DNA of 52,284 nucleotides from Patescibacteria group bacterium (GCA_042571305.1 JBHPHS010000003.1:1-52284); one strand, 5' to 3'; shown: positions 27,735 through 51,342, numbered from the stretch's first letter. A program made the numbers and translations. The notes: generated by a model not told the origin, from the sequence alone.

Positions 27735-27735
27735 G

Positions 27736-29288: not shown

Positions 29289-29373
29289 CGGTGGGTGTGG
29301 GAGTCGAACCCACTAGTCCTTTGCAGGACATGGTTTAGCAAACCATTCTCGTCGACCGTCTGAGTCACCCACC
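29289..29373 (-). tRNA. tRNA-Ser(GCT)
   Basis: ATGGT-TT GCT AA-ACCAT arm, variable arm GTCCTGCAAAGGAC, T arm GTGGG-TTCGACT-CCCAC; atypical D region. Confidence 0.85.
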
Positions 29374-35546: not shown

Positions 35547-35810
35547 TCCCCGGTAGCTCAGCGGTAGAGCAGGAAGCTGTGTTAGCAGCTCTTGGTGGAA
35601 ACATCAAGATGAAAAGTGGGTGAATTCAGGGAACGCTCCAATTAGTTTGGAGTAACCGTGAGCCAAGCCCCGATTTTTTCAGGGAAGGTGCAGAGACTAG
35701 GTGATTACACCCTTAGAGCGCCCACCACCTAAAGTTAAAAAAGCTATGGTGATGAGATAGTCCATATAGTAACTTCAAGGTCGTAGGTTCGAATCCTACC
35801 CGGGGAGCCA
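35547..35810 (+). tRNA. tRNA-Asn(GTT), split by an intron (exons 35547-35580 and 35770-35810)
   Basis: Joined exons: TCCCCGG TA GCTC AGCGGTA GAGC A GGAAG CT GT|T AA CTTCA AGGTC GTAGG TTCGAAT CCTAC CCGGGGA G CCA. Confidence 0.93.
35581..35769 (+). ncRNA. Group I intron (189 nt, no ORF) between anticodon positions 35 and 36
   Basis: P1 AGCTGT/GCAGCT with U.G at the splice site; P2 TCTTGGTG-GAAA-CATCAAGA; P AATTCAGGGAA; Q AACCGTGAGC; R CAGAGACTA; S GAGATAGTCC; terminal G at 35769. Confidence 0.92.
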
Positions 35811-35831
35811 GTGGCGCAACAAAAGATGTGG

Positions 35832-36365
35832 TTAAGAATTTGCAAGCCTTTCTAGTTCGGGAATCAAGGTTTCAAATTTTCCATTAATATCAAAGACATA
35901 TGGCCTATCTGGTATAGGGGGAATTCTTGGAGGTGTGCTACCCATCATCGTAAAGTAAAGAATACAGTTATTTTTCAATTCTCTTTCCTCGACACTAAAA
36001 CTTGCATTGAATTTATTTTTTAATTCACGAAAGCCTGTTTTTGTAAATGCTTTCCAGAAAACTTCATCAAATTTTTTCATTACTTCATATTGAGGTTGTG
36101 TTACCCCAAGACTTTCAAGGTAAGGTGTTAAAATAGGACTTTCCAGATAAGATGACGCTTCCCCTTGTTTTCTAAGCAATCTAGCTAGAGACTTTTTATC
36201 CACTGTTTCTTCTCTTGGTGTATTATTATTCTGTGTATATTCTACTATCTCCAGTTCATCGGGGCTGATTGGGTGTTTTTTAAGCTTAAGAACTGGCAGC
36301 CAGTCACCACCTCTGTCTTGGTAAAGTAGTTGTGCAGAGTCTGAGCCATTCTCTTTCTTACTCAT
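35832..36365 (-). CDS. Hypothetical protein (first unit after tRNA-Asn)
   Basis: 177-aa ORF, no recognised motif. Confidence 0.65.
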   Translation of the reverse strand: MSKKENGSDSAQLLYQDRGGDWLPVLKLKKHPISPDELEIVEYTQNNNTPREETVDKKSLARLLRKQGEASSYLESPILTPYLESLGVTQPQYEVMKKFDEVFWKAFTKTGFRELKNKFNASFSVEERELKNNCILYFTMMGSTPPRIPPIPDRPYVFDINGKFETLIPELERLANS

Positions 36366-36669
36366 AATTTATTCTGAATTGGTAGTGTATCACAGCAGCT
36401 TGAGAAGTCAACTTAAAACCCTTTACCCTTTATGCTATCAATTTGCTTTCTTCTTATTTAAGCCGCTATTCTCAGGTTCGAAAACTTGATTTGGAAGTGT
36501 TGAGAGAGAAGATGAAATATATTCAGGAGGAATAAGAAGTTACGCAGTAAATTATTAATAATTATATGTAATATTTCAAACGGACAATTGGTTCCTCACA
36601 TAGTCCACAAGAGCGAGCTTTTAGCTTTTGATATATTTACTCCAGGCTATTTGATATAATTCATACCTT

Positions 36670-36900
36670 ATGCCAATGGACCCTAAATATGAAGATTTGG
36701 AACTCGACATTGTTGAAGCTCGAGGTGCAGGACGTGTGTGGCAAGAAATGGCTAAGAACCCTGCCCTTCCAGGTTCAAAAACTGCACAAACTTTCCCTAA
36801 CGGAATCCCCAGAAAAGTATTAGAAAGAAAAATGAAAAAAACAAAAGAAAGAATAAATGCAGAAATTACTCAAGTTACAAGAAGAGAAAGAGAGGGTTAA
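36670..36900 (+). CDS. Small hypothetical protein
   Basis: 76-aa ORF preceded by TGATATAAT. Confidence 0.6.
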   Translation: MPMDPKYEDLELDIVEARGAGRVWQEMAKNPALPGSKTAQTFPNGIPRKVLERKMKKTKERINAEITQVTRREREG

Positions 36901-36950
36901 CTTAATATCTTTGTAGACTCCTCTTTTCCCGTCTGATATTATTCAAATTA

Positions 36951-37601
36951 ATGAAATTACTTTTAACTTCAGCTGGGTTAACAAATAAATCTATAGCTAT
37001 TGCTTTTAACAAACTGGTAGGACTTCCTAAAGAAAAAATCCATATTGCATTTATTCCAACCGCAGCCAATGTTGAAGAAGGAAATAAAGATTGGCTAATT
37101 GATGATTATAATAACCTTAAAAAACAAGGCTACGGATGCATAGATATTGTTGACATTTCTGCAATTTCTCCAAAGGTTTGGAAACCAAGATTAGAAGATG
37201 CAAATGTTTTATTTTTTGGAGGTGGTAACACATTTCACTTAATGCACTGGTTACAAAAATCTGGATTAGAAAAACAATTGTCAGAATTGCTAAAAACTAG
37301 GGTTTATGCAGGTATAAGTGCGGGTGGATGCATCGCTGGTCCAACTATTTACAACTCTGTTCAAAACTTATTTGATGAAAAGTATGAGTTGCGCATTAAA
37401 GAAGGTTTGGGTTTAGTTGATTTTCAATTTGTCCCTCATTTAAACTCTCCTTACTTTAAAAAAATAAGAATAAAATACCTAGAAGAAGCAGCAAAGAAAA
37501 TCACTGAACCAGTATATGTTGTGGACGACAATACTGCTGTAAAAGTTGTTAATGATAAGGTAACCGTAATATCAGAAGGTATTTGGAAAAAATTTAACTA
37601 G
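36951..37601 (+). CDS. Peptidase E / S51 (class I glutamine amidotransferase-like)
   Basis: MKLLLTSAG, AFIPTA, FGGGNTFHL, GISAG, VPHLNS. Confidence 0.9.
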   Translation: MKLLLTSAGLTNKSIAIAFNKLVGLPKEKIHIAFIPTAANVEEGNKDWLIDDYNNLKKQGYGCIDIVDISAISPKVWKPRLEDANVLFFGGGNTFHLMHWLQKSGLEKQLSELLKTRVYAGISAGGCIAGPTIYNSVQNLFDEKYELRIKEGLGLVDFQFVPHLNSPYFKKIRIKYLEEAAKKITEPVYVVDDNTAVKVVNDKVTVISEGIWKKFN

Positions 37602-37670
37602 GAAATAGTTCCCCGCATAGTCCACAAGAGCTAGCTAGCTTCGGTAATCTATATCAAACCTCAGTAAAAG

Positions 37671-37892
37671 TTACTCTGTAGGGACCACTGTTGTATACAT
37701 GTCTACGTAATTTACGACACACTCCTTTTTACCTCGGCATAGCTTATTCTGGTAAAGTGGGCAAGAAACATATCCTTTTTCTTCATCGACAATAGTTAAC
37801 TCGACAGGGTTTGAGAAGTCTTGTTTAAAATCTATTGATGCCTTACCCCTTTTTACTTTTGTAACAGGCGCACACTCGGTCCTTAATCCCAT
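37671..37892 (-). CDS. Small Cys-containing hypothetical protein
   Basis: 73 aa, 4 Cys (CP.....LC.....C); fills one repeat-bounded unit. Confidence 0.55.
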   Translation of the reverse strand: MGLRTECAPVTKVKRGKASIDFKQDFSNPVELTIVDEEKGYVSCPLYQNKLCRGKKECVVNYVDMYTTVVPTE

Positions 37893-38023
37893 GTACGGAT
37901 TCTAACACCTAAATTATATTTGTCAAAAGCCAACCTTATACAAGTAGTTCCTCACATAGTCCACAAGGGCGAGCTAGAGGTAGTTTGATATATTTATTCT
38001 TCTTGTTTTGATATAATTTCTCT

Positions 38024-38266
38024 GTGAAAGAATTAAAACCTTTTCCACCACAAGGACTAACAACCATAGATTGGTGTAATATTGATGTGGCAAAACCCTG
38101 CCCCTATAAAAGTGGAATAAAGAACTGTGGTATTAAAAAACGATTGTCTGAATTTTCTTTAAAAGGAGGGTCAAGAAAAAAAGAAGCTGAAAGATTGTGG
38201 AATTTGGCTCAGTCTAATCCAAATGTATTCAATGACTTGTGTATAGGGTCGTTTTTTAGGTATTAA
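38024..38266 (+). CDS. Small Cys-containing hypothetical protein
   Basis: 80 aa, 4 Cys; TGATATAAT 6 nt before GTG; fills one unit. Confidence 0.55.
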   Translation: MKELKPFPPQGLTTIDWCNIDVAKPCPYKSGIKNCGIKKRLSEFSLKGGSRKKEAERLWNLAQSNPNVFNDLCIGSFFRY

Positions 38267-38306
38267 CAAACCAGTTCCTTACATAGTCCACAAGGGCGAG
38301 CTAGGT

Positions 38307-38915
38307 TCAATTTTTACTTTTGAAGAGAGGGTGTTTTCCCGGCTTTACTAATGTCCCGCTGGAGTTCGACCATAGAATGGTCTCATCTTTTAATTTAAGA
38401 GATTCCCAAAGTGGGTCATCCGGTGCTGTTAGCTTACTAGTCGTCTCCACCACTTCTCTTAAGGTGGCAGGCAAATTTCCTAATTCATATTGCATTAAAG
38501 ACACACCGGTGAAGAGGGCTGTGGTTGAAGAGATTTTAATGGGTGGTACTAAATCATAATCATGACTACCAAAAATTCCACAAAGTTGTATTACTGCAGT
38601 TTCTTGCTCTTTATTCACCTCAAGTGTACGCCAATGATTACCAGGAGTAAAACCATCAGGGGGTGTGTCAAAGAGGACGGTCTTACTAAGATTTGGAAGC
38701 CCAACCTGGTCTACAATCTCTTTTAAAGAGATGGGTTTTATTCCTGATTCCCTAGCCAACGACAAGTTGAATTCAGTATTTTGATAGGGGTAAATAAGAC
38801 GTATCTTTTCATACACCCTTCTATCCACTTTTACAGAAAAAGGTCCAATAGATATCCTTAATGGTTTTGGCTCGCGTCTGAACCCAAATAATTCAAAAAT
38901 ACTTTCTTTAGACAT
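38307..38915 (-). CDS. Hypothetical protein
   Basis: 202-aa ORF filling one unit; stop 4 nt from the repeat. Confidence 0.7.
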   Translation of the reverse strand: MSKESIFELFGFRREPKPLRISIGPFSVKVDRRVYEKIRLIYPYQNTEFNLSLARESGIKPISLKEIVDQVGLPNLSKTVLFDTPPDGFTPGNHWRTLEVNKEQETAVIQLCGIFGSHDYDLVPPIKISSTTALFTGVSLMQYELGNLPATLREVVETTSKLTAPDDPLWESLKLKDETILWSNSSGTLVKPGKHPLFKSKN

Positions 38916-39107
38916 CTGTGTTTTAAATTGTTGCTCGTACTATAACGGTTATGAAAACATATTTCAACTTTAGCTTGTTTTATTAATATAATAAGTTCGC
39001 AACATAGTCCACAAGAGTGAGCTTAGTGTAACAATATTGTTAAGGTTGTTGGTACATGGGCTTTTTTGGTTTGTTTAGTTTCTCTTTTGTGGTAGTATAC
39101 TAAATTT

Positions 39108-39476
39108 ATGACAGAGCGATTAATAAAAGCCATGTTTGAAGTTGACCCCCGAAAAGCTCCAGTGGCTAGGTTTTATAAGGGACTTGCATGGGCTGTAAAA
39201 AATTGTGGACTAGGTGTTGAGTTGACTGTTCCTGTAACAGATGAGCAGAAGTTATTGCCTTTTGCATCATCTAATCCAAACGTGCGAGTTCGTATACCAG
39301 AAGATGTTGTTAAAAAGATACTTGAATCTGGTGATGTTCAGCAAGAGGTAGCAAAAATTGTTAGAAGGGGTGGTGTAAAACGTGGCCTTGGTGAAATTGG
39401 TGCAGAAGTAGTTTGTTTAGGATTGGCTAAAATTTTAGCCGAAGATGAAGATACTAAGCTGGACTTTCAAATATAG
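39108..39476 (+). CDS. Hypothetical protein
   Basis: 122-aa ORF with TATACT 6 nt upstream. Confidence 0.65.
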   Translation: MTERLIKAMFEVDPRKAPVARFYKGLAWAVKNCGLGVELTVPVTDEQKLLPFASSNPNVRVRIPEDVVKKILESGDVQQEVAKIVRRGGVKRGLGEIGAEVVCLGLAKILAEDEDTKLDFQI

Positions 39477-39625
39477 AATCTTAAACCACAAGAGCGAGCT
39501 GGACTTGTCTTAATCTACTCACTTTGATTAATTTATAACTCTACTGGTATACTTCAATAATGAAACTAGCCGAGAAAGTTGAAGATTAAATAGTCTCGGG
39601 CTTATACTGGTTACATGGAGAAATA

Positions 39626-40366
39626 ATGAAACAAGATTCACCAGAACATGCAAAAAGTTACGAGAGACAAGCGGCTTATTATGATGCGATATATGAAGCT
39701 CAAGGAAAAGATTACAAGAAAGAATCAGTTCAAATTCATGAAGTAATCGGAAAACATAAAATATCAGCAGGAAATAAACTGCTTGATATTGGATGCGGAA
39801 CAGGAGGCCATTTTCCTTTCTTAAAAGAATGGTACTCAGTTGAAGGTCTGGATATTGACCAGCACATGCTTCAGGTGGCAAGGCAAAGACTTCCAGACAT
39901 CACCTTTCATCAGGGTGATATGGTTGACTTTGATTTAAACAAACAGTTTGATGTGGTTACTTGTTTATTTAGTGCTATTGGTTATGCCATGACCATTCCG
40001 AATCTACAGTCTGCAGTTAAGTCTCTTGAACACCACACAAAACCTGGGGGTGTTGTGGTTGTTGAGCCTTGGTTTTCTCCCGAACAGTGGAAAGAAGGCC
40101 GACCCTCTTCTGTTTTTGTTGACAAGCCAGACATGAAATTGGCCCGTATTAATATAAGCGAGAGAAGAGGAAACGTTTCTATTGTGAATTTTCATTTTCT
40201 AGTGGCTACACCAGGTCAAGTTGAACACTTTACTGAGTTGCATGAAATAGGCCTCTTCACAAAAAATGAGTATATGGAGGCTTTTGAGAAAGTAGGCCTG
40301 GAAACAACCTTTGACCCAAAAGGAATTACAGGTAGAGGTCTTTATGTTGGAGTAAAAATATCTTAA
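39626..40366 (+). CDS. Class I SAM-dependent methyltransferase (TylM1/DesVI-like N-methyltransferase group)
   Basis: YYDAIY...KDY..E, LLDIGCGTGGH, GDMVDF, FDVVTCLFSAIGY, PGGVVVVEPWF, GRGLYVG. Confidence 0.9.
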   Translation: MKQDSPEHAKSYERQAAYYDAIYEAQGKDYKKESVQIHEVIGKHKISAGNKLLDIGCGTGGHFPFLKEWYSVEGLDIDQHMLQVARQRLPDITFHQGDMVDFDLNKQFDVVTCLFSAIGYAMTIPNLQSAVKSLEHHTKPGGVVVVEPWFSPEQWKEGRPSSVFVDKPDMKLARINISERRGNVSIVNFHFLVATPGQVEHFTELHEIGLFTKNEYMEAFEKVGLETTFDPKGITGRGLYVGVKIS

Positions 40367-40457
40367 GCTGATAAGAAGTTCCTCACATAGTCCACAAGAG
40401 CGAGCTAAGAGCCTGCGGACTTGCCGTTTGGGGAACAACAGTGATATATTAGAACCC

Positions 40458-40718
40458 ATGGAAAGAGAACTAGAGGCAAAACTCATGTCTTCTGTTGTAA
40501 AAGCACATAATAGACGGGAGGCAATAGCCAAGTTTATTGAAGAAAACACAGACAAATTAACCACAGAGGAGCTAGTAGAAATCACAATGATGGGTATTGA
40601 CCTGGTTGTTGCTGACGCTGTGGAGGACATAGAAAAAACTGGCCTAAGAGTTAGAACGGTCTCACTAAAAGACAATCTTAAAAAGATTTTAGAAATTAGC
40701 AGAGGGAATACTCCTTAA
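40458..40718 (+). CDS. Small hypothetical protein
   Basis: ORF track 40428-40718; ATG at 40458 follows TGATATATT. Confidence 0.6.
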   Translation: MERELEAKLMSSVVKAHNRREAIAKFIEENTDKLTTEELVEITMMGIDLVVADAVEDIEKTGLRVRTVSLKDNLKKILEISRGNTP

Positions 40719-40777
40719 AGTTCTAAATCCATCCCACCCCGCGAGCTCATAGCGTAACAATTTGGTATACTTCAGTT

Positions 40778-41452
40778 ATGAACCTGAGAGGAAAAAACGT
40801 CGTGCTTTTCGGAGCCTCGAGCGGATTGGGAAAATCCCTAGTAAAACTTCTTTCAGTTGAGGAGGTAAATTTAATCCTCCTCTCAAGAGGAATTGGTTTA
40901 ACAAATTTCCCAGACACTGTAAAAATACCTTGTGATATTCGAAAAGAAAACGAAATTGTTGCTGCTTTCAAAAAAATAGATAGTAAATTTGAAAAAATTG
41001 ACCTACTTATAAACTGTGTTGGAATTGGTTTGGTTAAAGATTTAAGAGAAACAGGAGGAAGTGAAATAGACAACGTAATCAATACAAATCTAAAAGGCGC
41101 AATTATTGTGGCACGCGAGGCATATAAAAGAATGTCTCAGAAAAGTTCTGGTTACATTGTAATTATTTCGTCTACTTCTGGTAGAAAAGTAAGAGCTATG
41201 GAAACAGTGTATTGTGCAACAAAGTGGGGATTAAGGGGTTTTACAGGCAGCTTACAGTTGGCTGGTGAGGAGAATGGGGTGAAAGTTACTGGGGTTTATC
41301 CTGGTGGGATGAAGTCTAAGAATTTTTGGTCTATCGTCCCTGGCAAGGATATAAAAGATTACCTCGAACCTGCATTTGTAGCGGAAAAAATTATTAATTT
41401 AGTAAAGGGTAGATATAAAAAAGAACTTGTTATCGAAAGAGCAAGTTCCTAA
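40778..41452 (+). CDS. Short-chain dehydrogenase/reductase
   Basis: GASSGLG, YCATKWG (YxxxK), YPGGM. Confidence 0.93.
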   Translation: MNLRGKNVVLFGASSGLGKSLVKLLSVEEVNLILLSRGIGLTNFPDTVKIPCDIRKENEIVAAFKKIDSKFEKIDLLINCVGIGLVKDLRETGGSEIDNVINTNLKGAIIVAREAYKRMSQKSSGYIVIISSTSGRKVRAMETVYCATKWGLRGFTGSLQLAGEENGVKVTGVYPGGMKSKNFWSIVPGKDIKDYLEPAFVAEKIINLVKGRYKKELVIERASS

Positions 41453-41507
41453 CATAGCCCACAAGAGCAAACTGAGTAACCTTAAGCTAAATCTGTTAAA
41501 ATAATTT

Positions 41508-41852
41508 GTGTTTCAAAAAGTAAGACAATTAACTTCACAAACTGAACCATATTGGTCAATTATTTTTGTTCCTATTTGGCAAGAATTGTTGTTTAGGTAT
41601 GTACCCTATTTTATATATTTAAAGTTAAATAATTTCTGGTTAATAGGTATTATCTCCTCTTTAGTGTTTACATCTATACATTGGTATTTCAAAAAATGGT
41701 TTATTGTCTTTTCCTTCTTTGGAGGTATACTTCTATGGATAATTATTGTTAAGTTTGGTTTGCTACCTACAATCATTATTCATTCAACAATTAACTTGTT
41801 ATTGAATGCTTCTGGGTTAAGAAAAAGGGCTGAAAAAAAGTTCTCTACATAG
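41508..41852 (+). CDS. CPBP/Abi (CAAX-protease-like) intramembrane protein
   Basis: PIWQELLFR, FTSIH, IIIHSTIN. Confidence 0.8.
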   Translation: MFQKVRQLTSQTEPYWSIIFVPIWQELLFRYVPYFIYLKLNNFWLIGIISSLVFTSIHWYFKKWFIVFSFFGGILLWIIIVKFGLLPTIIIHSTINLLLNASGLRKRAEKKFST

Positions 41853-41912
41853 TTTACTAGCCCCTGCCAATTTTTTAATTTCCTTTTATGTGGCTCCTGC
41901 TATAATCTACAT

Positions 41913-42353
41913 ATGGCAATAAAATTTGAGTTTCGTGACATGACTAAAGCCGAGTTTAAACGAGAGCAGGCTGCTTTTGATGAACACGGACAAGGGTTTG
42001 GAAATCCACCAGATAAACAAAAACGTTTTGGGTTTGTTGCAACAGACAAAGGGAAATTTGTAGGCTGCTCAAGCGGGTTGGCTCAAAAGAACAATAATAA
42101 ATATGGCAAATATTTTTATCTAAGTGACCTTTTGGTTGAGAAAGATTACAGGAAACTTGGTTATGGCAAAAAACTTTTAGAATTACTGGAAAACAAAATA
42201 AAACAACTGGGGATTGACTATATTTGGACATGGACTGCAGAGTACGAAGCTAGCACTTTTTATCAGAAACATGGATATCAAGTTTTTACTACATTTGATA
42301 AATATTACCAGTCAGGTGATGCCAGGGTTGGACTTCTTAAGAAGCTGGTGTAA
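41913..42353 (+). CDS. GNAT-family acetyltransferase
   Basis: LLVEKDYRKLGYGKKLL, ASTFYQKHGY. Confidence 0.93.
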   Translation: MAIKFEFRDMTKAEFKREQAAFDEHGQGFGNPPDKQKRFGFVATDKGKFVGCSSGLAQKNNNKYGKYFYLSDLLVEKDYRKLGYGKKLLELLENKIKQLGIDYIWTWTAEYEASTFYQKHGYQVFTTFDKYYQSGDARVGLLKKLV

Positions 42354-42388
42354 ACAAGTTCCTCACATAGTCCACAAGAGCGAGCCAA

Positions 42389-43168
42389 TTATATTCTTTG
42401 ATTAAATGCTTTTTTGAACTCTTCTTCAGTTTTGAATATATTTAGCGGAATATTCATATTTCTCAATAGTCTTCGAAGTGTTTTTTCGTGGGCACAATTA
42501 TCTATTGATATTTTCTTAAAATCTTTTGAAAGTACACTTTCTGATAAAGAAGGGAACTTTGTTTCACCAGCAAGAGCGTTTAAAGTCACCTGTGTTTCTT
42601 TGTCTATTATTTTTGCACTATAAGCTGCCAAGTCAATATTCTCTGTTTCACAAGCGAGTTTCAATTTGTTGTAAATAGATTTAAGTTCTTCATAAAATCC
42701 GATAAGTATTTTGGAGTCTGGTTGGGTTTTTTTATCTTTTTTTTCTTTAATCTTTAAATCTGGGCTTAAAATGGGAGCCGTTTTGTTTCGAATGTTAGTT
42801 TTTAATGTGGCTAACAAATTTTTATATCTTTGTAGCTCCTTATCTGTAGAAAAATATACCACTTTCCCGTCTAAAAAAATTGACTGCAAGGGCCCCTCTA
42901 ATTTAGAAATTCTTTCTGCTCTATCCCAAGAGACGGGCCACAAGTCATATCCAACCCCTTTTATAATGAACTGATAAGATAGCCGATAACCTTTTTCCGT
43001 CCTGGGAATAAAAAAGAAATCAATATCAGAATATTTATGTATATTTCCTTTAACATAGGAGCCATAGCAAACGAGCACCGAAACATCATTGGCAAAATCA
43101 CTTTCTATCTTTTTGATAATAGTTTCGAGAATCTTACTATTCCGAATTACTTTATTATTTAATCTCAT
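42389..43168 (-). CDS. Pol-beta-superfamily nucleotidyltransferase (kanamycin-NTase-like architecture)
   Basis: YGSY..G..HKYSDIDF motif; helical C-terminal domain. Confidence 0.85.
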   Translation of the reverse strand: MRLNNKVIRNSKILETIIKKIESDFANDVSVLVCYGSYVKGNIHKYSDIDFFFIPRTEKGYRLSYQFIIKGVGYDLWPVSWDRAERISKLEGPLQSIFLDGKVVYFSTDKELQRYKNLLATLKTNIRNKTAPILSPDLKIKEKKDKKTQPDSKILIGFYEELKSIYNKLKLACETENIDLAAYSAKIIDKETQVTLNALAGETKFPSLSESVLSKDFKKISIDNCAHEKTLRRLLRNMNIPLNIFKTEEEFKKAFNQRI

Positions 43169-43303
43169 AAACTAATCAACACACAAGACATGGTCTAGAT
43201 GACTAATTGAGTATAGCAGAGGTAAGTAATTTCTATACTCATTAATCGGTCAAAAGCAAAACCAGTTCCTCACATAGTCCACAAGAGCGAGCAGACTACT
43301 TAG

Positions 43304-43348
43304 CTTCAAAAAACCATACTAAATTGTTCGAACTCAGTTAGGATTTAA
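43304..43348. repeat. Second repeat family, copy 1 (45 bp, central GTTCGAAC palindrome)
   Basis: CTTCAAAAAACCATACTAAATTGTTCGAACTCAGTTAGGATTTAA; 39/45 identical to 47643-47687. Confidence 0.85.
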
Positions 43349-43351
43349 TCT

Positions 43352-44263
43352 TTATAACTTCTTAAAACTTTTTATTATTGAAGATATGGTTTGTCTGTAA
43401 GGCCAAGTAATTGGATATGCGTAGCCCACTAATCTTAAGTCTGTACTGCTGTTTGTAGGTTCTCTTAGCTTTAATTTGTATTCGTAGACTGGGGGGTCTG
43501 TTACTTGTAGTTGTATTGAACTTTGAGACTCCAAAGTATCAAGTATTTTTTCTGTTAAAAAAACAGTGGTAGAAGTGAGGTAGGCAATTTCCCCTTCATC
43601 CATTTCAATTTTACTAAATTCTGGGGGAGTATATCCAGGCCTCGAATCCTCAAAGAAAAAACCGTCAATTGGGTCCCCCATACTAATTATGTAGTTGTCA
43701 CCCAGGGGTATTTCACAGATAGTCTCTGAGTCTGGTGTTCTTTCGTCAATGCATTTTTTCAGATTATTAACACATTCTACATCCTCATTATTTTGGGTAA
43801 CCATAACATAGTCGGCAGTTGAATCATATTCCCTTGGTAATTCATAAACTGACATAAAACTCGGGTATTCAAATTGGTATTTACCATCAGAGGTTATAAA
43901 AACGTTTGTATTAAAAGGCTTGTCAACGAAGTCCCTTTCAGATATCACTGAAGACAGTTTTGTGAGATTCATTAGAGTACTTATATAAGTAGGGTTTACT
44001 CCCAAATTAGTATTAAAGTTACTATCTGACTTTTCTTGGTTTAGTGTCCCATTCGTTTTTAATGATGGAGTTGGTTGAGTTTTTGTCACCTGTTTATTTT
44101 GTTGAATGTATTGGTAACCAAAATATCCCGCCACCGATAAAGTTATAATCTGTAGTACGACAAGTGAGATTAGCAAAGCCTTCGGATTGCGAGGTTTTAC
44201 GGGCTCAACTAGTGGCTGTGAAGAGGAAGCCTTAGGAGTACTTGGTGGTAGGTTGTTTTCCAT
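43352..44263 (-). CDS. Membrane-anchored hypothetical surface protein
   Basis: Pro-rich N-terminus, single TM, YQFEYPS pattern, ends IIKSFKKL (PsbP-like pattern, tentative). Confidence 0.7.
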   Translation of the reverse strand: MENNLPPSTPKASSSQPLVEPVKPRNPKALLISLVVLQIITLSVAGYFGYQYIQQNKQVTKTQPTPSLKTNGTLNQEKSDSNFNTNLGVNPTYISTLMNLTKLSSVISERDFVDKPFNTNVFITSDGKYQFEYPSFMSVYELPREYDSTADYVMVTQNNEDVECVNNLKKCIDERTPDSETICEIPLGDNYIISMGDPIDGFFFEDSRPGYTPPEFSKIEMDEGEIAYLTSTTVFLTEKILDTLESQSSIQLQVTDPPVYEYKLKLREPTNSSTDLRLVGYAYPITWPYRQTISSIIKSFKKL

Positions 44264-44376
44264 AATAAAATTTTAGCACATTTTCTAGATGGTTATAAAC
44301 AAGTTTCTCACATAGTCCACAAGAGCGAGCTAGCTTCACAAAACCTATTCTCCCGTGTTGTAGTAAAATAAAGACA

Positions 44377-44922
44377 ATGAAAAAGAAAAGAGGCCCTTGG
44401 GTAGTGGTTGGTACCAAAACCATTTATCAAAATCCATGGATAAAGGTCAGAGAAGACAAGATTATTAGGCCTGATGGTAAAAAGGGAATTTTTGGTGTGG
44501 TTTCAATGGTGCCTGGTGTTTCTGTTTTACCCATGGACGATAAAGGTGATGTTTATTTGACCAAGGAATATCACTATGGTGTGGAAAGAATAACCATTGA
44601 GGCCGTAAGTGGCGGAATTGGCAACAAAGAAACAAAAATTCAGGCTGCAAAACGAGAACTTAAAGAAGAAACTGGTTTAACAGCAAAGAAATGGACAGAT
44701 TTGGGTGTAGTTGACCCCTTTACAACAGTCGTCGTCTCACCTAATTACATGTATCTTGCTCAAGACCTGACCCATCTAAAAAGAAACCCAGAAGGAACAG
44801 AAAAGATAACAGTATTTAAAATTCCCTTTAAAAAAGCAGTGGAATGGGTTATGGAAAATAGAATAACTCACTCGGCTACAACAACTCTAATATTGAAAGT
44901 CAATAATTACCTCAATAATTAA
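44377..44922 (+). CDS. NUDIX hydrolase (ADP-ribose pyrophosphatase-like)
   Basis: YQNPWIKVRED..IRPDG, AAKRELKEETG. Confidence 0.92.
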   Translation: MKKKRGPWVVVGTKTIYQNPWIKVREDKIIRPDGKKGIFGVVSMVPGVSVLPMDDKGDVYLTKEYHYGVERITIEAVSGGIGNKETKIQAAKRELKEETGLTAKKWTDLGVVDPFTTVVVSPNYMYLAQDLTHLKRNPEGTEKITVFKIPFKKAVEWVMENRITHSATTTLILKVNNYLNN

Positions 44923-45090
44923 TAAACAAGTTCCTCATATAGTCCACAAGTGCGAGCTAATTACCCTATAATTTGATTTATCCCCTATTCTTCAGGTATA
45001 ATTGCCTCAATTTTCTAATCAGAAGCTAGTTAATTGCTTTTAGTTTTTGAGAAGAAAAAATAAAAACTTGCACTTTAAAAGGAGGCTAAG

Positions 45091-45474
45091 ATGAAAAAAA
45101 TAGTAAGTATAATTTTATTGGTTGGCATTGGAGGGGGAATAATTTTCCACACTATAGAAAACAAAGTCTATGCAACAGCAGTTTTTCTTACATATGTCTT
45201 CGTTTTGGGTGTAGGAAAAACACTTATTACACGTAGAATAAAAGAACAAAAAATATGGGAGAGATTTTTTTCCAATATGTGGAATGTTCTCAAACTTGAA
45301 CACTTTACCTCAAGCAAGGAATTCTATGACTACATTTATAACGACCTGCCACCAATAAGACAAAGAATACGAACAAGGCATCTGCAAATTTGCCCAATCT
45401 GTAAAGAAAGATTGGAAGAAATTAAGAAATGGATGTCCGATGAAAACGAAAAGTTCAAAATGAAAAAACAATAA
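45091..45474 (+). CDS. Two-TM protein with C-terminal zf-HC2-like motif
   Basis: IRTRHLQICPICKERL (HxxxCxxC). Confidence 0.6.
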   Translation: MKKIVSIILLVGIGGGIIFHTIENKVYATAVFLTYVFVLGVGKTLITRRIKEQKIWERFFSNMWNVLKLEHFTSSKEFYDYIYNDLPPIRQRIRTRHLQICPICKERLEEIKKWMSDENEKFKMKKQ

Positions 45475-45636
45475 AAAGTGCAAGAAAAAAACTCTTTGAA
45501 AGAGAAACACAATTAAGTTATAAAGTGTTTTTCAAGTAGGAGAGTTTTTTATTGGCATAAAAGGTTCCCCACATAGTCCACAAGAGCGAGCTTAGTGTAA
45601 CAAGAAATTTATGCTCCAAAATGATACAATTCAAGC

Positions 45637-46125
45637 ATGTCTGAAAGAACAGATAAATTACTAACAGATGGCTTGTCTGAGGGTTACGCAGGTGTAAAAA
45701 AACCTGAAAATATTCAAAGGTCTGGATTTCCAGGAAAAGCCAATGACTATATAAATTCAGAAGGAGGTCACTATCATGATGAATGGTTTGCTGATGATAG
45801 TGGTGGAGGACAGGAACTAGTAAAAGAAGGGGAAGAACAATTTACTAGACTCTATGGCGGTGGTGTAATTCCAGTTGAAGAACTACAAAAGTTAGGTCTT
45901 ACAACAAAAGATGTTATCTTTCGTTTAATAACAAGCGTAAATGAACTCAAGGAAAAAACTAGACTATATGAACCTTGTTCACTAGAACTTCCAGATGGAT
46001 GGAATTACAAGTATGAAATTATCAAAAAAAGTAAAGAAGTCCCCCTAACTGTTGGTTATGAATCAATTGAATTTAATGGCAGGGAGGTTTTTGCTCACGC
46101 CCACATACTTTCCCCAATAAAATAA
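45637..46125 (+). CDS. DUF5680-like hypothetical protein
   Basis: GYAG, YHDEWF..GGGQELV, LYGGG, GYESIEFNGREVF. Confidence 0.6.
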   Translation: MSERTDKLLTDGLSEGYAGVKKPENIQRSGFPGKANDYINSEGGHYHDEWFADDSGGGQELVKEGEEQFTRLYGGGVIPVEELQKLGLTTKDVIFRLITSVNELKEKTRLYEPCSLELPDGWNYKYEIIKKSKEVPLTVGYESIEFNGREVFAHAHILSPIK

Positions 46126-46196
46126 GTCTCGCATAGTCCACAAGTGCGAGCTAGCTGTTTCATTAACTTCAGTTTTTGTTATAATTCCAGAAAACT

Positions 46197-46496
46197 ATGG
46201 TAGAAAAGGAACAACCGTTGCATCCAATACAAGAAAGAGTGAGGGAGCTTTACAAGCACAACGGTTGGGATACCGACCCAACACTGCTTCTTCTAGCTAT
46301 GCAAGAAGAATTAGGCGAGTTAGCGGCTCGCTGGTTAGCGGAGCACCCAGGATACGAAAAATCTATTAAAGATACGGACCCAATACCTGAAGAGGTAGGT
46401 GATTTAGTTCACCTGGTTTTGGCTTTTTGTAACACCCAAGGAATTAACTTTGAGGAGTGTGTGGATGCGACGATTAAAAAAAGAAGAAAAAAGTAA
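46197..46496 (+). CDS. MazG-like nucleotide pyrophosphohydrolase
   Basis: EELGELA...EEVGDL, CNTQGINFE. Confidence 0.88.
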   Translation: MVEKEQPLHPIQERVRELYKHNGWDTDPTLLLLAMQEELGELAARWLAEHPGYEKSIKDTDPIPEEVGDLVHLVLAFCNTQGINFEECVDATIKKRRKK

Positions 46497-46618
46497 GTTT
46501 TCCTCTAAACCCAAAACAAGTTCCTCACATAGTCCACAAGAGCGAGCCCTTAGCGTAACAGAAATGTAGTTAACAAGGGCATGTGGAATACCCAAATGAT
46601 ATAATTCCTTGATTTACC

Positions 46619-47182
46619 ATGGAAAGGTTACTGGACAGTATTGAGTTTGACCAGGAAAAAATTGAAAATAAAGCTAATGGGATTGCCAAAAAAATTAGTG
46701 AACTCAAAACTTCCAATAAACAATACACGCTTTTTCTTTATGACTTCAGTTTTGGAGGGAGCGATGAAGTATGGTGTCGTCCTTATTTAGATGATGTTAA
46801 AGACCATCATGATAGAGTAATTATTCAAGATTTACATATTGATTCAAGTATGCCTTTGTATGAACAGGAAGAAAAGGTTATTAATACTCTAAAAAAGGCA
46901 TTGAAGGTTAATGAGAAAAAGACGCCCCACTATGCAGAATTCGATACACTTGGTATGGGATTAAAATGGGACGGCCATGATTTGTACGAAATTCATAATG
47001 TATGGAAAACTAAGCTTTCAGGCGTATACTGGCACTTTATTGAGATAGGAAACATCTATGGTGCTCCAAATATTAATGCTATTACAGTAAACGAGGATTA
47101 TAGCAGGGAAGTGAACAAGCCTATTATAGATATTATTCGAAACGCAAAGTTATTTACTCTACGTCAAATACTAAAACCGTGA
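46619..47182 (+). CDS. Hypothetical protein
   Basis: 187-aa ORF filling one unit, TGATATAAT upstream. Confidence 0.7.
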   Translation: MERLLDSIEFDQEKIENKANGIAKKISELKTSNKQYTLFLYDFSFGGSDEVWCRPYLDDVKDHHDRVIIQDLHIDSSMPLYEQEEKVINTLKKALKVNEKKTPHYAEFDTLGMGLKWDGHDLYEIHNVWKTKLSGVYWHFIEIGNIYGAPNINAITVNEDYSREVNKPIIDIIRNAKLFTLRQILKP

Positions 47183-47386
47183 ATAAAGCTTCTCACATAA
47201 TCCACAAGAGCGAGCTAGGTGAAACTTAATATACCCAAGTTAGCCTTGTCTAGAACGCCAACAGAAACTAGCCTTAAATCGCCTCTAATAAAATTCCTAA
47301 GTTGTAAGTAAATAAAATTGTAAAAGCCCAGTTTAGTGGTTTTTTTGATTTGTGGTAAGATTGAACAAAGGAGGGGGTGGAGCGAA

Positions 47387-47560
47387 ATGGGCGGTTATGC
47401 AGTTGGTTTTGTTGTTGGTATTGCTTGTGGTTTTGCCATTGGACGAAAACAGAAACCTTGGTCGGAATTAACTGATATACAGAAAAAGATTATAGTTGGG
47501 ATTACAGTTCTCCTTGTGATATTAGTTTTACTTACGACATTTGGCGTTATCTTTTATTAA
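47387..47560 (+). CDS. Small two-TM membrane protein
   Basis: ATG at 47387 after AGGAGG/GGAG; GRKQKPWSELT between two TMs. Confidence 0.65.
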   Translation: MGGYAVGFVVGIACGFAIGRKQKPWSELTDIQKKIIVGITVLLVILVLLTTFGVIFY

Positions 47561-47642
47561 AACGGATTTCAATTAGTAGCTAAGGTTAGGCAAGGCTTTA
47601 CTCATGCTATTTTCTCTCTTGATTCCTGTACTAACTTAAAAT

Positions 47643-47687
47643 CTTCAAAAAACTGTACTAAATCGTTCGAACCCAGTTAGAATATAA
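47643..47687. repeat. Second repeat family, copy 2
   Basis: CTTCAAAAAACTGTACTAAATCGTTCGAACCCAGTTAGAATATAA. Confidence 0.85.
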
Positions 47688-47744
47688 GCTTCGAAGCCTG
47701 TTTTTTTATTGCCGAAAATATGTTTGATGTAGTAGTAACTATTT

Positions 47745-48965
47745 TTACTTACTTGCGAAAAATTCTTTAACCAAAGGGTAGGCAGCCGTATCATAAATCT
47801 TCCCAGCCCCCAACAAACTATGAACTGTAAATCCAACTGCACTATTGCCATATTTGTCAAAAGCTGTTAGTCCCACCTTGTAAAGTTCTTCTATTGAATA
47901 ATCTGTTTTTACCTCACCAAACATTTGCATTTGATCACTTGCATTATTAACCATAAACTCCGCCCCTATCCACGGAATCCCATATTCTTTGGACATCTTT
48001 CTCGCCTGTACGCTAGATAGTTGCACATCTCTAGTAACTTGTTCTGGACTAGGAGCACGGCCACAAGCAGTAACTCCAAATATATCAGCATTGACCAGCG
48101 ATACACCTTCATAATTACTCCAATTGCTAAATCCTCCCATTTTATACATCACCTTGCCTGAGTATAGTTTTCTAATTTGAGGCACCACTCTCGCATAAAA
48201 GGCATTCATTACTTCCCGCGTTTTTTCTACTGGATAATTATTGGAGTCCATAATCGCTTCTATCTGATTAACCGGCACAAAGTAATCAACATTATATTTT
48301 TCAGCTATTGGAGCTAGCTCTAAAGAAACCGCCTCAAGTCTTCTTGACAAATCTTCAGGTGTAATATTATGTTCCTCCATCCCTCCATCCTCAAACTGAA
48401 CATAATCAGGGAACAAAACTACAGATAAGCCTTGCTGTTTAGCCAATAAAATATTATGAACCAAAGCCCGTTTTGATTTATCTTGACTGTAATCTCTTGG
48501 TTTATCATAGCCCAAATACCACAGCTTCAGTTCTCCCTCCCTAAGCCAATAATTAGCATGAATAAATTGTGTGTTCACTCCCAAGTCAGCCAGTACATCA
48601 GAAAAATACAATACTTCAATCAAATTCGGTAAAGTTCCATAAGTTTGTGTAGCTTTTATATAAGTGGGATATTTTCTTGTTAGCGATTCATTCATTTTGT
48701 CTAACTTTTTCCAACTAGGAACCTTATAATCAAGTTTTACAAAAGTCTCATGGTCATTATTATCTACATTTTCCGAAATCCAGGCTTTCCTGGCTTCAGG
48801 ATCTTCTGGTGGGGGGCCAACAGTATTTGCCAAAAAACTACCAGGCAGATCCCCTGGTCCAAATAAAAAATTTCCACCAACTAAAATAACCACTCCAATC
48901 AAAATAACAACAACAATCAGCCCTAAATGAACAAAACCTTTTTTATTAGCAGTATTTTTAACCAC
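47745..48965 (-). CDS. Membrane-anchored glycoside-hydrolase-like (TIM barrel) protein
   Basis: KGF..L N-terminal TM; LGVNT, AKQQGLSVVLFP, AEKYNVDYFVPVNQIE, IRKLYSGKV, PWIGAEF resemble clan-A/GH113-like folds. Confidence 0.55.
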   Translation of the reverse strand: MVKNTANKKGFVHLGLIVVVILIGVVILVGGNFLFGPGDLPGSFLANTVGPPPEDPEARKAWISENVDNNDHETFVKLDYKVPSWKKLDKMNESLTRKYPTYIKATQTYGTLPNLIEVLYFSDVLADLGVNTQFIHANYWLREGELKLWYLGYDKPRDYSQDKSKRALVHNILLAKQQGLSVVLFPDYVQFEDGGMEEHNITPEDLSRRLEAVSLELAPIAEKYNVDYFVPVNQIEAIMDSNNYPVEKTREVMNAFYARVVPQIRKLYSGKVMYKMGGFSNWSNYEGVSLVNADIFGVTACGRAPSPEQVTRDVQLSSVQARKMSKEYGIPWIGAEFMVNNASDQMQMFGEVKTDYSIEELYKVGLTAFDKYGNSAVGFTVHSLLGAGKIYDTAAYPLVKEFFASK

Positions 48966-49050
48966 TTTACTAACTCAGTATATGAATATTTATTTATCTT
49001 TGTAAAGTATCATTACTTTTAATATATTAAACATAGCCGTCTATTCGGTT

Positions 49051-50454
49051 ATGTTATATTGTGGAGTTATAATGTCCCATATGAGGATTGGCAGATTTGA
49101 CGGGAAGAAAATATTAATAATTCACTTTAGGGTGGGTCGAACAGACGGGGTCTCCATTGAAATTGCCTCCTGGAAAAAGATTCTTGAGGGGTTAGGCGCG
49201 GAAGTCAAGCTTTGTTCAGGCTCCGTAAACAGTGGTGCTGATTTTGTTATTGATGACCTTGAGCAGCAATTAAATGTCAAGATTTTTGATTTGGATGAGA
49301 ATTCTTTTGGTGGTTTTAAAACCTACAATGAGGAAACGTTTACAAAAACCCTTTTGGAAGAACAGCTTGTTTTGGAAGAGGGGTTTTCCATGGTTTTTGA
49401 GTCTTACAAACCGGACCAGTTAATTGTTTCTAATATTTTTTCGGTTGGGGAAAATCTGCCTGCAGCAGGAGCATTAACAAAAGTTCTGGATAAGTTTCAA
49501 ATTCCCACTCTAGCAGTTCACCACGATTTTTATTGGGAAAACCAAAGATACAAAAAATCCTCATCTTATTTGGTTAGCGAACAGTTAAAGAAATACTTTC
49601 CCCCTAAAAGGAGATGGATTAAGCACTGCTGTATTAATACGATTGCTCAGGATGAACTTTGGAGGCGAAAGGGTATTAGAGGAGATGTTCTTTATGATAC
49701 ACAGGATTTTACCAAACCTTCCTGGAAGAAGAATAACCTCAATCATCGTCTGATAGAAAAATTCAAAATTGATGAAAATGATATTTTAGTGCTTCAAGCA
49801 ACCCGCATAGTCAGACGCAAAAACATAGAAATTGCGATCAGCTTTGTTGACGCCCTGACCAAAAAACTTAACTCATTAAGTAGGAAAATAACTCTTTATG
49901 ACAATCGAAGGTTTGTGCCAAAAAAACAACAGGCGGCTCTCATAATTGCAGGATATGCAGAAGAGCGGGACAAGAAATACCTTGAGCAGCTTAAAAAATA
50001 CGCTACTGATAAAAAAGTTAAGGTATATTTCATTGGTGATTCCATTAAAACACAAAGTAAGGGCAATGGAGCTAAATTTAGTCTTTGGGATATTTATCCT
50101 TATGCGGATTTAATTACATATCCTAGTGAGCATGAGGGTTTTGGAAACCAATTTTTAGAGGCCACTTTTGCTAAAAAGCCTGTTGTTATCTTCGAGTACC
50201 CAGTTTTTGTTAAAGACATTAAACCTAAAGGTTTTGAAGTAGTTAGTTTTGGGCGAAAGGTTTCCTATAAATCGGATTCGGGAATGGCCATGATTCCTCA
50301 AGAAGTTTTGCAGGGAGCGGTTGAACAGTCTCTAGAGGTTTTGACCAATAGTAGAAAACATTATAAATTGGTTAACAATAATTTTATTATTGGAAGACTG
50401 AATTTTTCCCACGAAAATACCTGTAAGAAATTTATGTCTCTTTTAGATTTTTAG
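49051..50454 (+). CDS. GT4-family glycosyltransferase (mannosylglucosylglycerate-synthase-like)
   Basis: GRTDGVSIE, HHDFYWE, LQATRIVRRKNIE, TYPSEHEGFGNQFLE. Confidence 0.85.
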   Translation: MLYCGVIMSHMRIGRFDGKKILIIHFRVGRTDGVSIEIASWKKILEGLGAEVKLCSGSVNSGADFVIDDLEQQLNVKIFDLDENSFGGFKTYNEETFTKTLLEEQLVLEEGFSMVFESYKPDQLIVSNIFSVGENLPAAGALTKVLDKFQIPTLAVHHDFYWENQRYKKSSSYLVSEQLKKYFPPKRRWIKHCCINTIAQDELWRRKGIRGDVLYDTQDFTKPSWKKNNLNHRLIEKFKIDENDILVLQATRIVRRKNIEIAISFVDALTKKLNSLSRKITLYDNRRFVPKKQQAALIIAGYAEERDKKYLEQLKKYATDKKVKVYFIGDSIKTQSKGNGAKFSLWDIYPYADLITYPSEHEGFGNQFLEATFAKKPVVIFEYPVFVKDIKPKGFEVVSFGRKVSYKSDSGMAMIPQEVLQGAVEQSLEVLTNSRKHYKLVNNNFIIGRLNFSHENTCKKFMSLLDF

Positions 50455-50486
50455 GCCATGCCTCGGTCTTGTTAGTAACTTTCCAG

Positions 50487-51014
50487 TTAGTAATTAATAC
50501 TAGGATTTCCCTTCATGGCATCTAAATCCACGAGGTTAACTTCGGCTGGTACGTCAAACTCTGCATCCGTAACTGCTGTTGGAAGACAGGTGTAACCACC
50601 AGGAACACTTCCTTCAGCTTGTTCCCACAGATCATAAGTTTCCTCTTCAAAGCAAGTTTTCATACCTTGGTTATCTTTATCCGACCAGGTATACATGCAG
50701 TTATCCTTCATAATCACAGTTCCAACCTCTCCATCTTGCATTGTAATCTTGCCTTTATACATTTTGCCCTTGACAATCCCTGAGTACTTAGCTCCACCTG
50801 CTTCGTAAGTACATTTCATAGGAACCCCCAACGCAACAGCTGCCTTAAGAGATCCTGTAAATGGATTGCTTTCGGAGACTTTTTGAGTCAAACTATCTAC
50901 TCCTGAACCACCACTTCCCTTTAGAAAAAACCAAACCGCTCCCGCGGCTGCTATAACCAAAATGATGACAATTAATTGTTTTCCTTTCACATTAATCACC
51001 CCCTCCGCATACAT
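50487..51014 (-). CDS. Membrane-anchored hypothetical protein
   Basis: N-terminal TM; GVPMKCTY, CMYTW, GMKTC, EFDVP. Confidence 0.7.
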   Translation of the reverse strand: MYAEGVINVKGKQLIVIILVIAAAGAVWFFLKGSGGSGVDSLTQKVSESNPFTGSLKAAVALGVPMKCTYEAGGAKYSGIVKGKMYKGKITMQDGEVGTVIMKDNCMYTWSDKDNQGMKTCFEEETYDLWEQAEGSVPGGYTCLPTAVTDAEFDVPAEVNLVDLDAMKGNPSINY

Positions 51015-51118
51015 AATAGTATTTAAATGATTCAGTTTGCAACAGCGGCATGGGTTTCTGGAAAGTAAGTTCTGAAACCGTCCTTATAAGCGAGCTAGGT
51101 TTAAAGTATAATTGTTGT

Positions 51119-51280
51119 ATGAGAAAGGGTTTGATTATACTCCTAATCTTGTTGGTCATTTGGTTGTTTGTAAGGTTTGTAATAGGTGGATCTGAGGACG
51201 ATTGGATTTGTGTGGAAGGAAAATGGATAAAACACGGGCAGCCCACAGCTCTAATGCCAGAGGAAGAGTGTGATAATTAG
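51119..51280 (+). CDS. Small membrane-anchored protein
   Basis: ATG 51119, 6 nt after TATAAT; TM then EDDWICVEGKWIKHGQP. Confidence 0.65.
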   Translation: MRKGLIILLILLVIWLFVRFVIGGSEDDWICVEGKWIKHGQPTALMPEEECDN

Positions 51281-51342
51281 AACCTAGGAAGGAATGACAC
51301 AGTTTCTAACTTCGTCTAGTGCGGGAACCGAATCGCTTGTGT

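Follow-up and report, generated by a model that had tools for sequence, protein, structure and literature searches.

The 52,284-nt window analyzed here, which is the entire contig C3 of a Patescibacteria group bacterium genome (G000; assembly of 595 kb in 26 contigs, 66% complete), contains, downstream of a tRNA-Asn gene, an array of small gene units separated by a repeated site of about 30 nt. This site is probably the P arm and core of the attachment site (attP) of a family of large serine recombinases (LSR) whose gene reads across its own core. The repeat, GTTCCTCACATAGTCCACAAGAGCGAGC(C/T)A, occurs in 15 near-full and five degenerate copies, all on the plus strand and all downstream of the tRNA-Asn gene, that span positions 36591-47217, with two outliers near 51.1-51.3 kb; from P arm through core, the site reads GTTCCTCACATAGTCCAC..GAGCCA. 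Its minus strand reads (W/stop)LALVDYVRN, followed by two mostly aromatic or hydrophobic residues and then a stop. A first-pass annotation of this DNA had derived the site from an attP lying inside the 3' end of a recombinase gene, and this derivation is supported by the C-terminal tails of an LSR family, whose members include P0105, P0060, and the LSR of genome G184.

A recombinase with the predicted C-terminal pattern was sought and was found in the LSR family. P0105, a protein of 518 aa with Resolvase, Recombinase, and zinc-ribbon domains, has the C-terminus ..DDWLALVDYVGTYYREQ.. (in longer form ...EVIIADDWLALVDYVGTYYREQLMQYQSQ, end DDWLALVDYVGTYYREQLMQYQSQ), and P0060 has ..MLPLVDIFRNQ.. 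(...RDPMLPLVDIFRNQEIEF..., MLPLVDIFRNQEIEF..); the contigs that encode them measure 21.5 and 26.7 kb, respectively. The match between P0105 and the window reading WLALVDYV is exact over eight residues and falls at the very point where the tails of the family diverge. Through these two proteins, and thus at the protein level, the site is seen to be continuous with an LSR gene in nature.

P0105 is 45% identical to the LSR of G184, a sister-family genome that carries an 18-nt box of the same site. The G184 gene (open reading frame (ORF) L109:2753-4384, minus strand, 543 aa) lies directly downstream of a tRNA-Asn gene (L109:2821-2893, plus strand) and reads through the entire tRNA gene on the opposite strand, so that its tail is ..APPVGFEPTTFFLTGSRSTVELQGN.. 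When this LSR was searched against a collection of 5.8 billion proteins, 1204 matches were obtained at E <= 1e-20, and the best 120 of the 1204 were examined. These homologues were named as recombinases of the Microgenomates group, Daviesbacteria, Woesebacteria, Roizmanbacteria, and Patescibacteria. Their common sequence extends through ...TPIFA.L..N..VII and some three further residues to W/L-L, and beyond this point they diverge. Their tails were classed by regular expressions. Forty-two of the 120 read as a tRNA complement in the register ..L-P-x-x-D-S-N.. (for example ..WLPRVDSNHEP.., NWLPRVDSNHEP), which is that given by the first-pass annotation for the tRNA end, and seven tails show such a complement in a different frame; 38 end one or two codons past [WLQM]L[PR..], three are site-like (including P0105 and P0060), and 26 are of other kinds. 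A recombinase ending in a WLPG-like motif had also been sought, and four of the 120 end in [W/Q/M]LPG, as expected for an ORF that enters the tRNA-Asn gene of the window. The use of tRNA 3' ends by this family is therefore visible in the G184 overlap, in the 49 of 120 tRNA-complement tails, and in the four ..LPG ends, and altogether 91 of the 120 homologue ORFs appear to enter a tRNA 3' end. Other LSRs of array-bearing genomes have the tRNA-complement tails WDSNPR, GWDLNPR, and GDRTRN, with tRNA-Ser or tRNA-His genes at matching places. Judging from these readings, the layout in which the ORF crosses the core is apparently general in this LSR group. Among the LSR ORFs noted at L104, L105, L106, and L108 (G278 and G169), those with tRNA-complement ends have tRNA-His or tRNA-Ser genes opposite their 3' ends; a fourth ORF (L106) has a tRNA-Trp gene nearby and a tail without a clear tRNA-complement reading.

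The tRNA gene at the head of the array was read from the sequence as a tRNA-Asn (GUU) gene at 35547-35810 (plus strand), interrupted in its anticodon loop by a group I intron at 35571-35785 (plus strand; Rfam RF00028, 69.3 bits for a gathering score of 50), and it is because of this interruption that ARAGORN misses it. Its 3' end, located by pattern search at 35786-35810, has the sequence GGTTCGAATCCTACCCGGGGAGCCA and reads W-L-P-G-stop-D-S-N on the minus strand, as the first-pass annotation had indicated; it is the putative anchor of the array and an attB-like site. The codons TGG CTC (W-L) are the complement of GAGCCA, which is the 3' end of a tRNA gene with encoded CCA, and GAGCCA is the likely core common to tRNA and site. 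The junction was placed there because the LSR tails diverge at this position. A crossover at columns 17-18 had been considered on account of two G184 contigs with 99 nt in common ahead of their divergence, but their continuations are homologous throughout and are better explained as diverged copies.

Beyond the core, the site can be aligned to the final 24-27 nt of the anchor tRNA with one break, a 6-nt insertion after GTTC. For the tRNA-Asn of G169 and its site, none of 5000 shuffles scored as high; the tRNA-Asn of G000 was equaled by 13 of 5000 shuffles when aligned with the copy at 42358 and by 165 of 5000 with the copy at 44303, and the tRNA-Asp of G278 by 4 of 5000 with its site a and by 938 of 5000 with its site b. 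In serine integrases, the distal motif of an attP half-site lies about 5 bp farther from the center than in attB. One 6-nt gap offsets GTTC in the tRNA-site alignments of G169, G000, and G278, and the resulting spacing of the site, which exceeds that of the tRNA, fits the attP/attB half-site geometry. The right flanks of the sites also resemble the downstream flank of the tRNA: 22 of 40 positions agree in G169, and in G000 a GYGYAACAR box is found 3-5 nt past GAGC in four copies and also past the tRNA. These flank similarities suggest that the tRNA-proximal junction may stay attB-like. That the central part of the site follows a tRNA in every case was an idea we dropped: a tRNA with the 3' end ..TCGGAGCA, sought as the source of the CAGTCGGAGCA subtype of family f38, was absent in five of five genomes.

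Under the attP reading, the LSR gene would lie on the P' side and read across the core. In the attP arrangement its ORF would continue into the P arm (..WLALVDYVGTYY..), and in the integrated state it would continue into the tRNA complement (..WLPRVDSN.., or WLPG and a stop for tRNA-Asn), while the P arm and core would stay behind at the far junction (attR). Each window copy looks like such an attR-type junction, in which a P arm of about 24-30 nt, corresponding to the last ~10 LSR codons, would be followed by the core GAGC(C/T)A, with the next unit beginning after it. Some 18 units, mostly of a single gene and without a recombinase, would have been added serially at the tRNA-Asn 3' end by an LSR that worked in trans or is now lost. 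These units would retain only a minimal P half-site, preserved by a DNA-level constraint such as recombinase binding and not by translation.

The site copies themselves are regular. A 19-mer of the repeat searched in the whole genome with up to three mismatches gave 16 matches, every one in the C3 array and on the plus strand, and its reversed control gave none. Seven copies are identical across the 19-nt core and six across the 28-nt consensus, and in the window conservation stops about 6-12 nt to the left of this consensus (~34-40 nt in total). Counting mismatches against the 28-nt consensus, the near-full copies at 36591-36620 (copy 1), 40378-40407 (copy 6), 42358-42387 (copy 8), 43265-43294 (copy 9), and 46520-46549 (copy 14) have none, and copy 8 is the sole one with a GAGCCA end, its minus strand reading NWLALVDYVRN. 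One mismatch was counted at 37947-37976 (copy 3), 44303-44332 (copy 10), and 45564-45593 (copy 12, which reads LALVDYVGN), two at 38274-38303 (copy 4) and 44930-44959 (copy 11), three at 37608-37637 (copy 2) and 47188-47217 (copy 15, the last near-full one), four at 38995-39024 (copy 5) and 41445-41474 (copy 7), and six at 46124-46153 (copy 13), where the register of the left end is doubtful. Copies 5 and 12 have the right flank TTAGTGTAACAA. Among the degenerate copies, that at 39472-39501 has retained the right half CCACAAGAGCGAGC and lost the left half, that at 40719-40748 is more tRNA-like (GTTCTAAATCCATCCCACCCCGCGAGC) with a GCGTAACAA box in its right flank, and that at 41840-41869 is of another subtype (GTTCTCTACATAGTTTACTAGCCCCTGCC), similar to site a of G469; the two outliers are located at 51068-51097 (GTTCTGAAACCGTCCTTATAAGCGAGCTA) and 51302-51331 (GTTTCTAACTTCGTCTAGTGCGGGAACC). 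All these copies are on the plus strand.

The tails described after the minus-strand reading (NWFVNT, NYLYKVGF, NFLSA, NLFTPAS, NWFCF, NLFITI, NLFINY, and NLFWV, each closed by a stop) are all present at the copies named by the first-pass annotation, and the codon that precedes the reading is mostly TAG, with TGG at 42358, as it had stated. Its divergent readings LAGWDGFRT (40719) and LAYKDGFRTYF (51068) were seen in a six-frame reading, and QGLVNYVEN (41840) and VPALDEVRN (51302) agree with hand translation of the DNA. In the whole genome, LALVDYVRN-type readings are confined to the C3 minus strand, and the open frame upstream of the reading extends over 0-22 codons only.

However, the proposal that the repeat is conserved like a protein did not hold. 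The third-position bias previously counted as 12 of 23 substitutions was found again, at 14 of 27 substituted cells (15 copies, 27 columns; binomial p = 0.036), but it is weak and the copies are not independent: the share was 9 of 19 when distinct variants were counted (p = 0.15) and 11 of 21 cells when the doubtful copy at 46124 was removed (p = 0.056). No third-position excess was present among 17 frame-neutral sites from other genomes, with 11, 7, and 10 changes at positions 1, 2, and 3, respectively (p = 0.46). In-frame stops occur in three sites, and in G169 an identical 23-nt insertion between ATAGTC and CAC shifts the frame in three sites while both flanking boxes are conserved. The lack of a third-position excess, together with this frame-breaking long variant, therefore places the conservation at the DNA level; the site copies are not kept by translation. 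The variation among columns is blocky and not periodic, columns 1-9 being variable and columns 10-21 nearly fixed in the 15 window copies, and this nearly fixed block loosens when all 28 aligned sites are considered. The long-form sites of G169 lie at L078:13296, 14619, and 15679, and their insertion, TCAGAAACTAGTTCTGAGTAAAC, is itself a small hairpin.

The absence of codon-position bias, and the position of the repeat in intergenic DNA near stop codons, would also suit a regulatory or structural element (a terminator, an element like the repetitive extragenic palindromes, or a protein-binding site) that was multiplied locally without recombination and whose protein reading arose by chance. 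We consider this explanation highly improbable. All 16 of the 16 matches lie at one locus downstream of a tRNA gene, in one orientation whatever the strand of the genes, and the same box is found downstream of tRNA genes in other families. No hairpin or covariation was found for the one structure tried, the site has no Rfam match, and terminator-like sites were not enriched (14 found for 11.7 expected); a promoter scan was not enriched either (50 found for 45.7 expected). An exact match of eight residues to a recombinase tail at its point of divergence is, by our estimate and not by computation, very unlikely to occur by chance.

To follow the site beyond the window, a back-translated LVDYVRN pattern was run on 401 genomes of the class, followed by a frame-neutral search for an 18-nt box with at most two mismatches. 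The LVDYVRN pattern matched nearly identical DNA in other families. The 18-nt box was found in 7 of the 21 genomes of family f38, one of them a false positive, and in 4 of the 125 genomes of the window's own family (G000 included) against three control matches. The genomes other than G000 in which it occurs number 12 in all and come from at least three families (G184, G169, G372, G111, G225, G212, G344, G278, G022, G469, G008, and G474). With neighboring copies added by local scans, the collected set comprised 21 sites from 11 other genomes and a fossil in G474. Arrays were seen elsewhere too, with four sites in G169 and three in G111, and the sites of family f38 read LPLVDYVRN. Four of these genomes have a same-strand tRNA gene at a distance of 1.3-5.3 kb upstream, namely tRNA-Asn in G169, G225, and G008 and tRNA-Asp in G278; that of G169 is also intron-bearing and also follows dnaG-rpoD (ORFs read by eye). 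In seven other site-bearing genomes, the tRNA was not found in the fetched stretch or the contig stops at the site. G474, which belongs to the window's own family, retains a more extended fossil of the tail, DWLALVEYVTNYFREQ.., upstream of which only 16 codons are open.

Four matches were discarded or left aside: that of G251 is a false positive inside an apparent GTP-binding protein gene, that at G000:C10:22785 is a false positive inside an apparent permease gene, that of G424 was set aside as unclear, and G456, site-like at the DNA level, was left out of the count. The G000-specific 19-mer was found in none of 60 relatives. It gave 27 single matches in GTDB contigs, in unrelated and mostly high-GC taxa, and four single matches without further copies in metagenome contigs, all judged to be due to chance; no match to the repeat was obtained in viral contigs.

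The array consists of 18 site-bounded units of 0.3-1.0 kb each at 35811-47217 (plus strand), thus about 11 kb of an assembly of ~0.6 Mb. Seventeen units contain one ORF of at least 70 aa and one contains two; 13 units are coded on the plus strand and five on the minus strand, and the sites keep one orientation regardless of gene strand. Pfam matches were obtained for 8 of the 19 array ORFs, which fall into the families S51 peptidase, methyltransferase, short-chain dehydrogenase (SDR), CAAX protease, GNAT, nucleotidyltransferase, NUDIX, and MazG. No recombinase domain was detected by Pfam among the 28 window ORFs scanned.

Several of these features would be expected of an integron-like platform, in which attC-like sites are served by a dedicated IntI-like or Xer-like tyrosine recombinase and the likeness to LSR tails is secondary: single small ORFs per unit, a constant site orientation, functions that are common in integron cassettes (GNAT, MazG, NUDIX, and nucleotidyltransferase), and no adjacent recombinase, as in integrase-less attC clusters (CALIN). 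Moreover, Xer-like tyrosine recombinases are present in every genome checked, and G000 encodes one tyrosine recombinase, Xer-like by its C-terminus as read by eye. Such a platform nevertheless seems improbable here. The TIGR02249 cut-off was passed in none of five array-bearing genomes, G000 being outside the five (best score 88 bits, cut-off 265); the best hairpin over 28 sites, the one structure tried, pairs 65.2% of cells as against 65.2% in shuffles, and its covariation was reached by 101 of 500 shuffles. The order GTT...AAC of the site is unlike the attC consensus as we know it, and the exact match of the site to the tail of P0105 would stay unexplained.

A closer competitor of the attP reading, although in our judgment an unlikely one, is that the units are complete LSR elements that have undergone internal deletion and the sites are decaying attR scars without present function. 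The LSR tails, the tRNA alignments, the occurrence in other genomes, and the G474 fossil fit dead remnants equally well; degenerate copies are interspersed in the array (39472, 40719, and 41840) or outlie it (51068 and 51302), and no cognate LSR is present in the assembled genome. However, random deletions would be expected to leave variable lengths of the LSR gene, and none are seen. The identity of seven copies in the 19-nt core and of six in the 28-nt consensus and the box identical across families argue for continued constraint or recent spread, and thus against decay, and the three G169 copies with the same 23-nt insertion suggest a propagated variant. The cassettes could be non-autonomous derivatives that either are mobilizable in trans or are deletion remnants, and we favor mobilizable units because conservation ends within about 12 nt to the left of the 28-nt consensus and because of the 19-nt identity among seven copies.

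Several observations weigh against the attP reading of the sites. The P0105 family is absent from the assembled genome, which is 66% complete; a single match to P0105 was found in the G000 assembly, an LSR of contig C10 that is 23-24% identical. No tyrosine or serine recombinase gene lies beside the array at any array examined. The tail of P0105 is known as a protein, and both a free element and an internal junction of a tandem array could account for it. The LSR of G184, the one LSR seen at a tRNA-Asn gene, uses a different frame where it passes through the core (APPVGFEP). To our knowledge, serine integrases do not recombine attP with attL, and serial stacking consequently needs the extra assumption that each unit restores an attB-like flank. 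Without a third-position excess, the protein reading contributes nothing to explaining the present conservation. Finally, recombination is proposed here from sequence comparison, and present activity is not in evidence.

The C10 LSR (G000:C10:16772-20206, L002), of 431 aa, is the only serine recombinase assembled in G000 and lies beside an apparent phage terminase large subunit gene; C10 could be of prophage or phage-like origin and have no relation to the array. No relatives of P0105 were found in viral contigs. Other candidates for the recombinase of the array were rejected. The minus-strand ORFs of 406 and 303 aa gave no recombinase-domain match in Pfam and have a hydrophobic N-terminal stretch (by eye). 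The 225-aa gene at 34836-35513, directly upstream of the intron-bearing tRNA-Asn gene, gave a weak HTH_3 match only; a 46%-identical gene is found at the equivalent position beside the same intron in G169 (L078:10165-11128), and the interval from rpoD to the intron-less tRNA-Asn gene of G225 is without any such ORF. This gene was ruled out since it travels with the group I intron (present in G169, absent in G225), and it may encode an intron-associated, perhaps homing, protein, whose GDG-type motif looks LAGLIDADG-like by eye.

Additional features were noted around the array and at corresponding places in relatives. A 49-nt repeat, 86% identical between 43304-43352 and 47643-47691, contains the palindrome GTTCGAAC with a T run on the minus strand and falls just after the stops of the two minus-strand genes of 303 and 406 aa, whose products have a hydrophobic start; it looks like a shared terminator, judging by this arrangement. 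The window also holds a tmRNA gene at 27733-28095 (minus strand, Rfam 146 bits) and a tRNA gene at 29289-29373 (minus strand, Rfam 38.6 bits) that is not in the ARAGORN list.

In six relatives (G001:C8, G009:C15, G006:C56, G013:C19, G027:C6, and G050:C30) the contig stops no more than about 430 nt past the tRNA-Asn 3' end, as would be expected of a strain-variable or repeated region. In L050 (G025), L060 (G047), and L045 (G010), small units at the same tRNA-Asn gene are bounded by other site families that look unrelated, and in these three relatives mosaic half-sites are joined at GAGC|CA. The full site of G025 is about 47 nt long with inverted arms (TATATTA.GTG), and its half-sites occur in the mosaic; in G010, an 85-nt direct repeat, made up of the tRNA end and its flank, surrounds a 1.9-kb two-gene unit. 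Small two-gene pairs were also found in or near the arrays at L078:14675-15272 (G169), L082:12112-12378 (G111), and L087:2346-2886 (G022). The pairs of G169 and G111 are 46% identical and the G022 gene looks alike by eye; from their N-termini, also read by eye, these pairs look like BrnT/BrnA-type toxin-antitoxin genes.

If the attP reading is true, it would explain how accessory genes build up at one hot spot in genome-reduced bacteria of the candidate phyla radiation without the enzyme being carried, and it suggests how tiny bacteria stack borrowed genes. It would also define natural attP/attB pairs (the site and the tRNA-Asn or tRNA-Asp 3' end) for a large family of serine integrases, and serine integrases of such a kind are sought for genome engineering. 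With the ORF crossing attP, integration would swap the tail of the LSR, from the native ..WLALVDYV.. to the tRNA-encoded ..WLPG and stop or ..WLPRVDSN.., and a recombinase that alters its own tail in this way could have a built-in means of switching its activity or stability according to whether it is free or integrated, a regulatory idea that is directly testable. More tentatively, and with less than even likelihood in our view, Microgenomates-type bacteria may run an integron-like platform of gene capture by LSRs, in which minimal P half-site units would be stacked at tRNA ends in trans and the tail swap could switch the enzyme. For annotation, tails like WLPRVDSNHEP on these recombinases should be recognized as tRNA complements.

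Among known systems, the staphylococcal cassette chromosome (SCC) and pseudo-SCC elements use the Ccr LSRs, which target the 3' end of rlmH/orfX, and they show tandem accretion, short direct repeats of the integration site between elements, and recombinase-less units beside complete ones. The array described here would share with SCC an LSR system, the targeting of the 3' end of a conserved gene, and tandem units parted by short site repeats. It differs in that a tRNA 3' end would be targeted, that most units consist of one gene and measure 0.3-1 kb, that the core would lie inside the 3' end of the LSR gene itself so that the LSR tail would change on integration, and that the hosts are ultra-small Microgenomates-type bacteria. 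As in integrons and CALIN, ordered small single-gene accessory units are found with one site orientation and no recombinase gene in the array; unlike integrons, no IntI (five genomes) and no attC-type hairpin (one structure) were found, and the site is a ~30-nt look-alike of a tRNA 3' end that matches the tail of a serine recombinase and not a tyrosine-recombinase substrate. An attP inside a gene is known from the integrase partition of SSV1-type archaeal elements and from the integration-dependent immunity of mycobacteriophages, in which attP lies in the repressor gene, both of which involve tyrosine integrases. The common trait would be a core within a coding region and C-termini that differ between the integrated and excised states, whereas here a serine recombinase would exchange its own last ~10-25 codons for a tRNA-complement reading.

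According to the preprint that describes them, tycheposons integrate at tRNAs, successive integrations push older elements inward, partial tRNA copies form the boundaries, an LSR is present in 27 of 937 elements, and the elements are defined by an inward-facing integrase within each (bioRxiv 10.1101/2020.12.28.424599). The array resembles tycheposons in its proposed successive integrations at a tRNA gene and differs from them in two respects: its units are without integrase, the 28 scanned window ORFs having no recombinase domain, and its boundary repeat is a conserved variant with a 6-nt insertion and not a plain tRNA copy. In the searched open literature, including the accessible parts of PMC12455944, PMC11386340, and the tycheposon preprint, neither arrays of this kind nor LSR ORFs that cross attP were found described for Patescibacteria. 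By analogy with these systems, the proposed mechanism is probably closest to SCC/pseudo-SCC accretion and to tRNA-anchored islands, and the presumed function resembles that of an integron.

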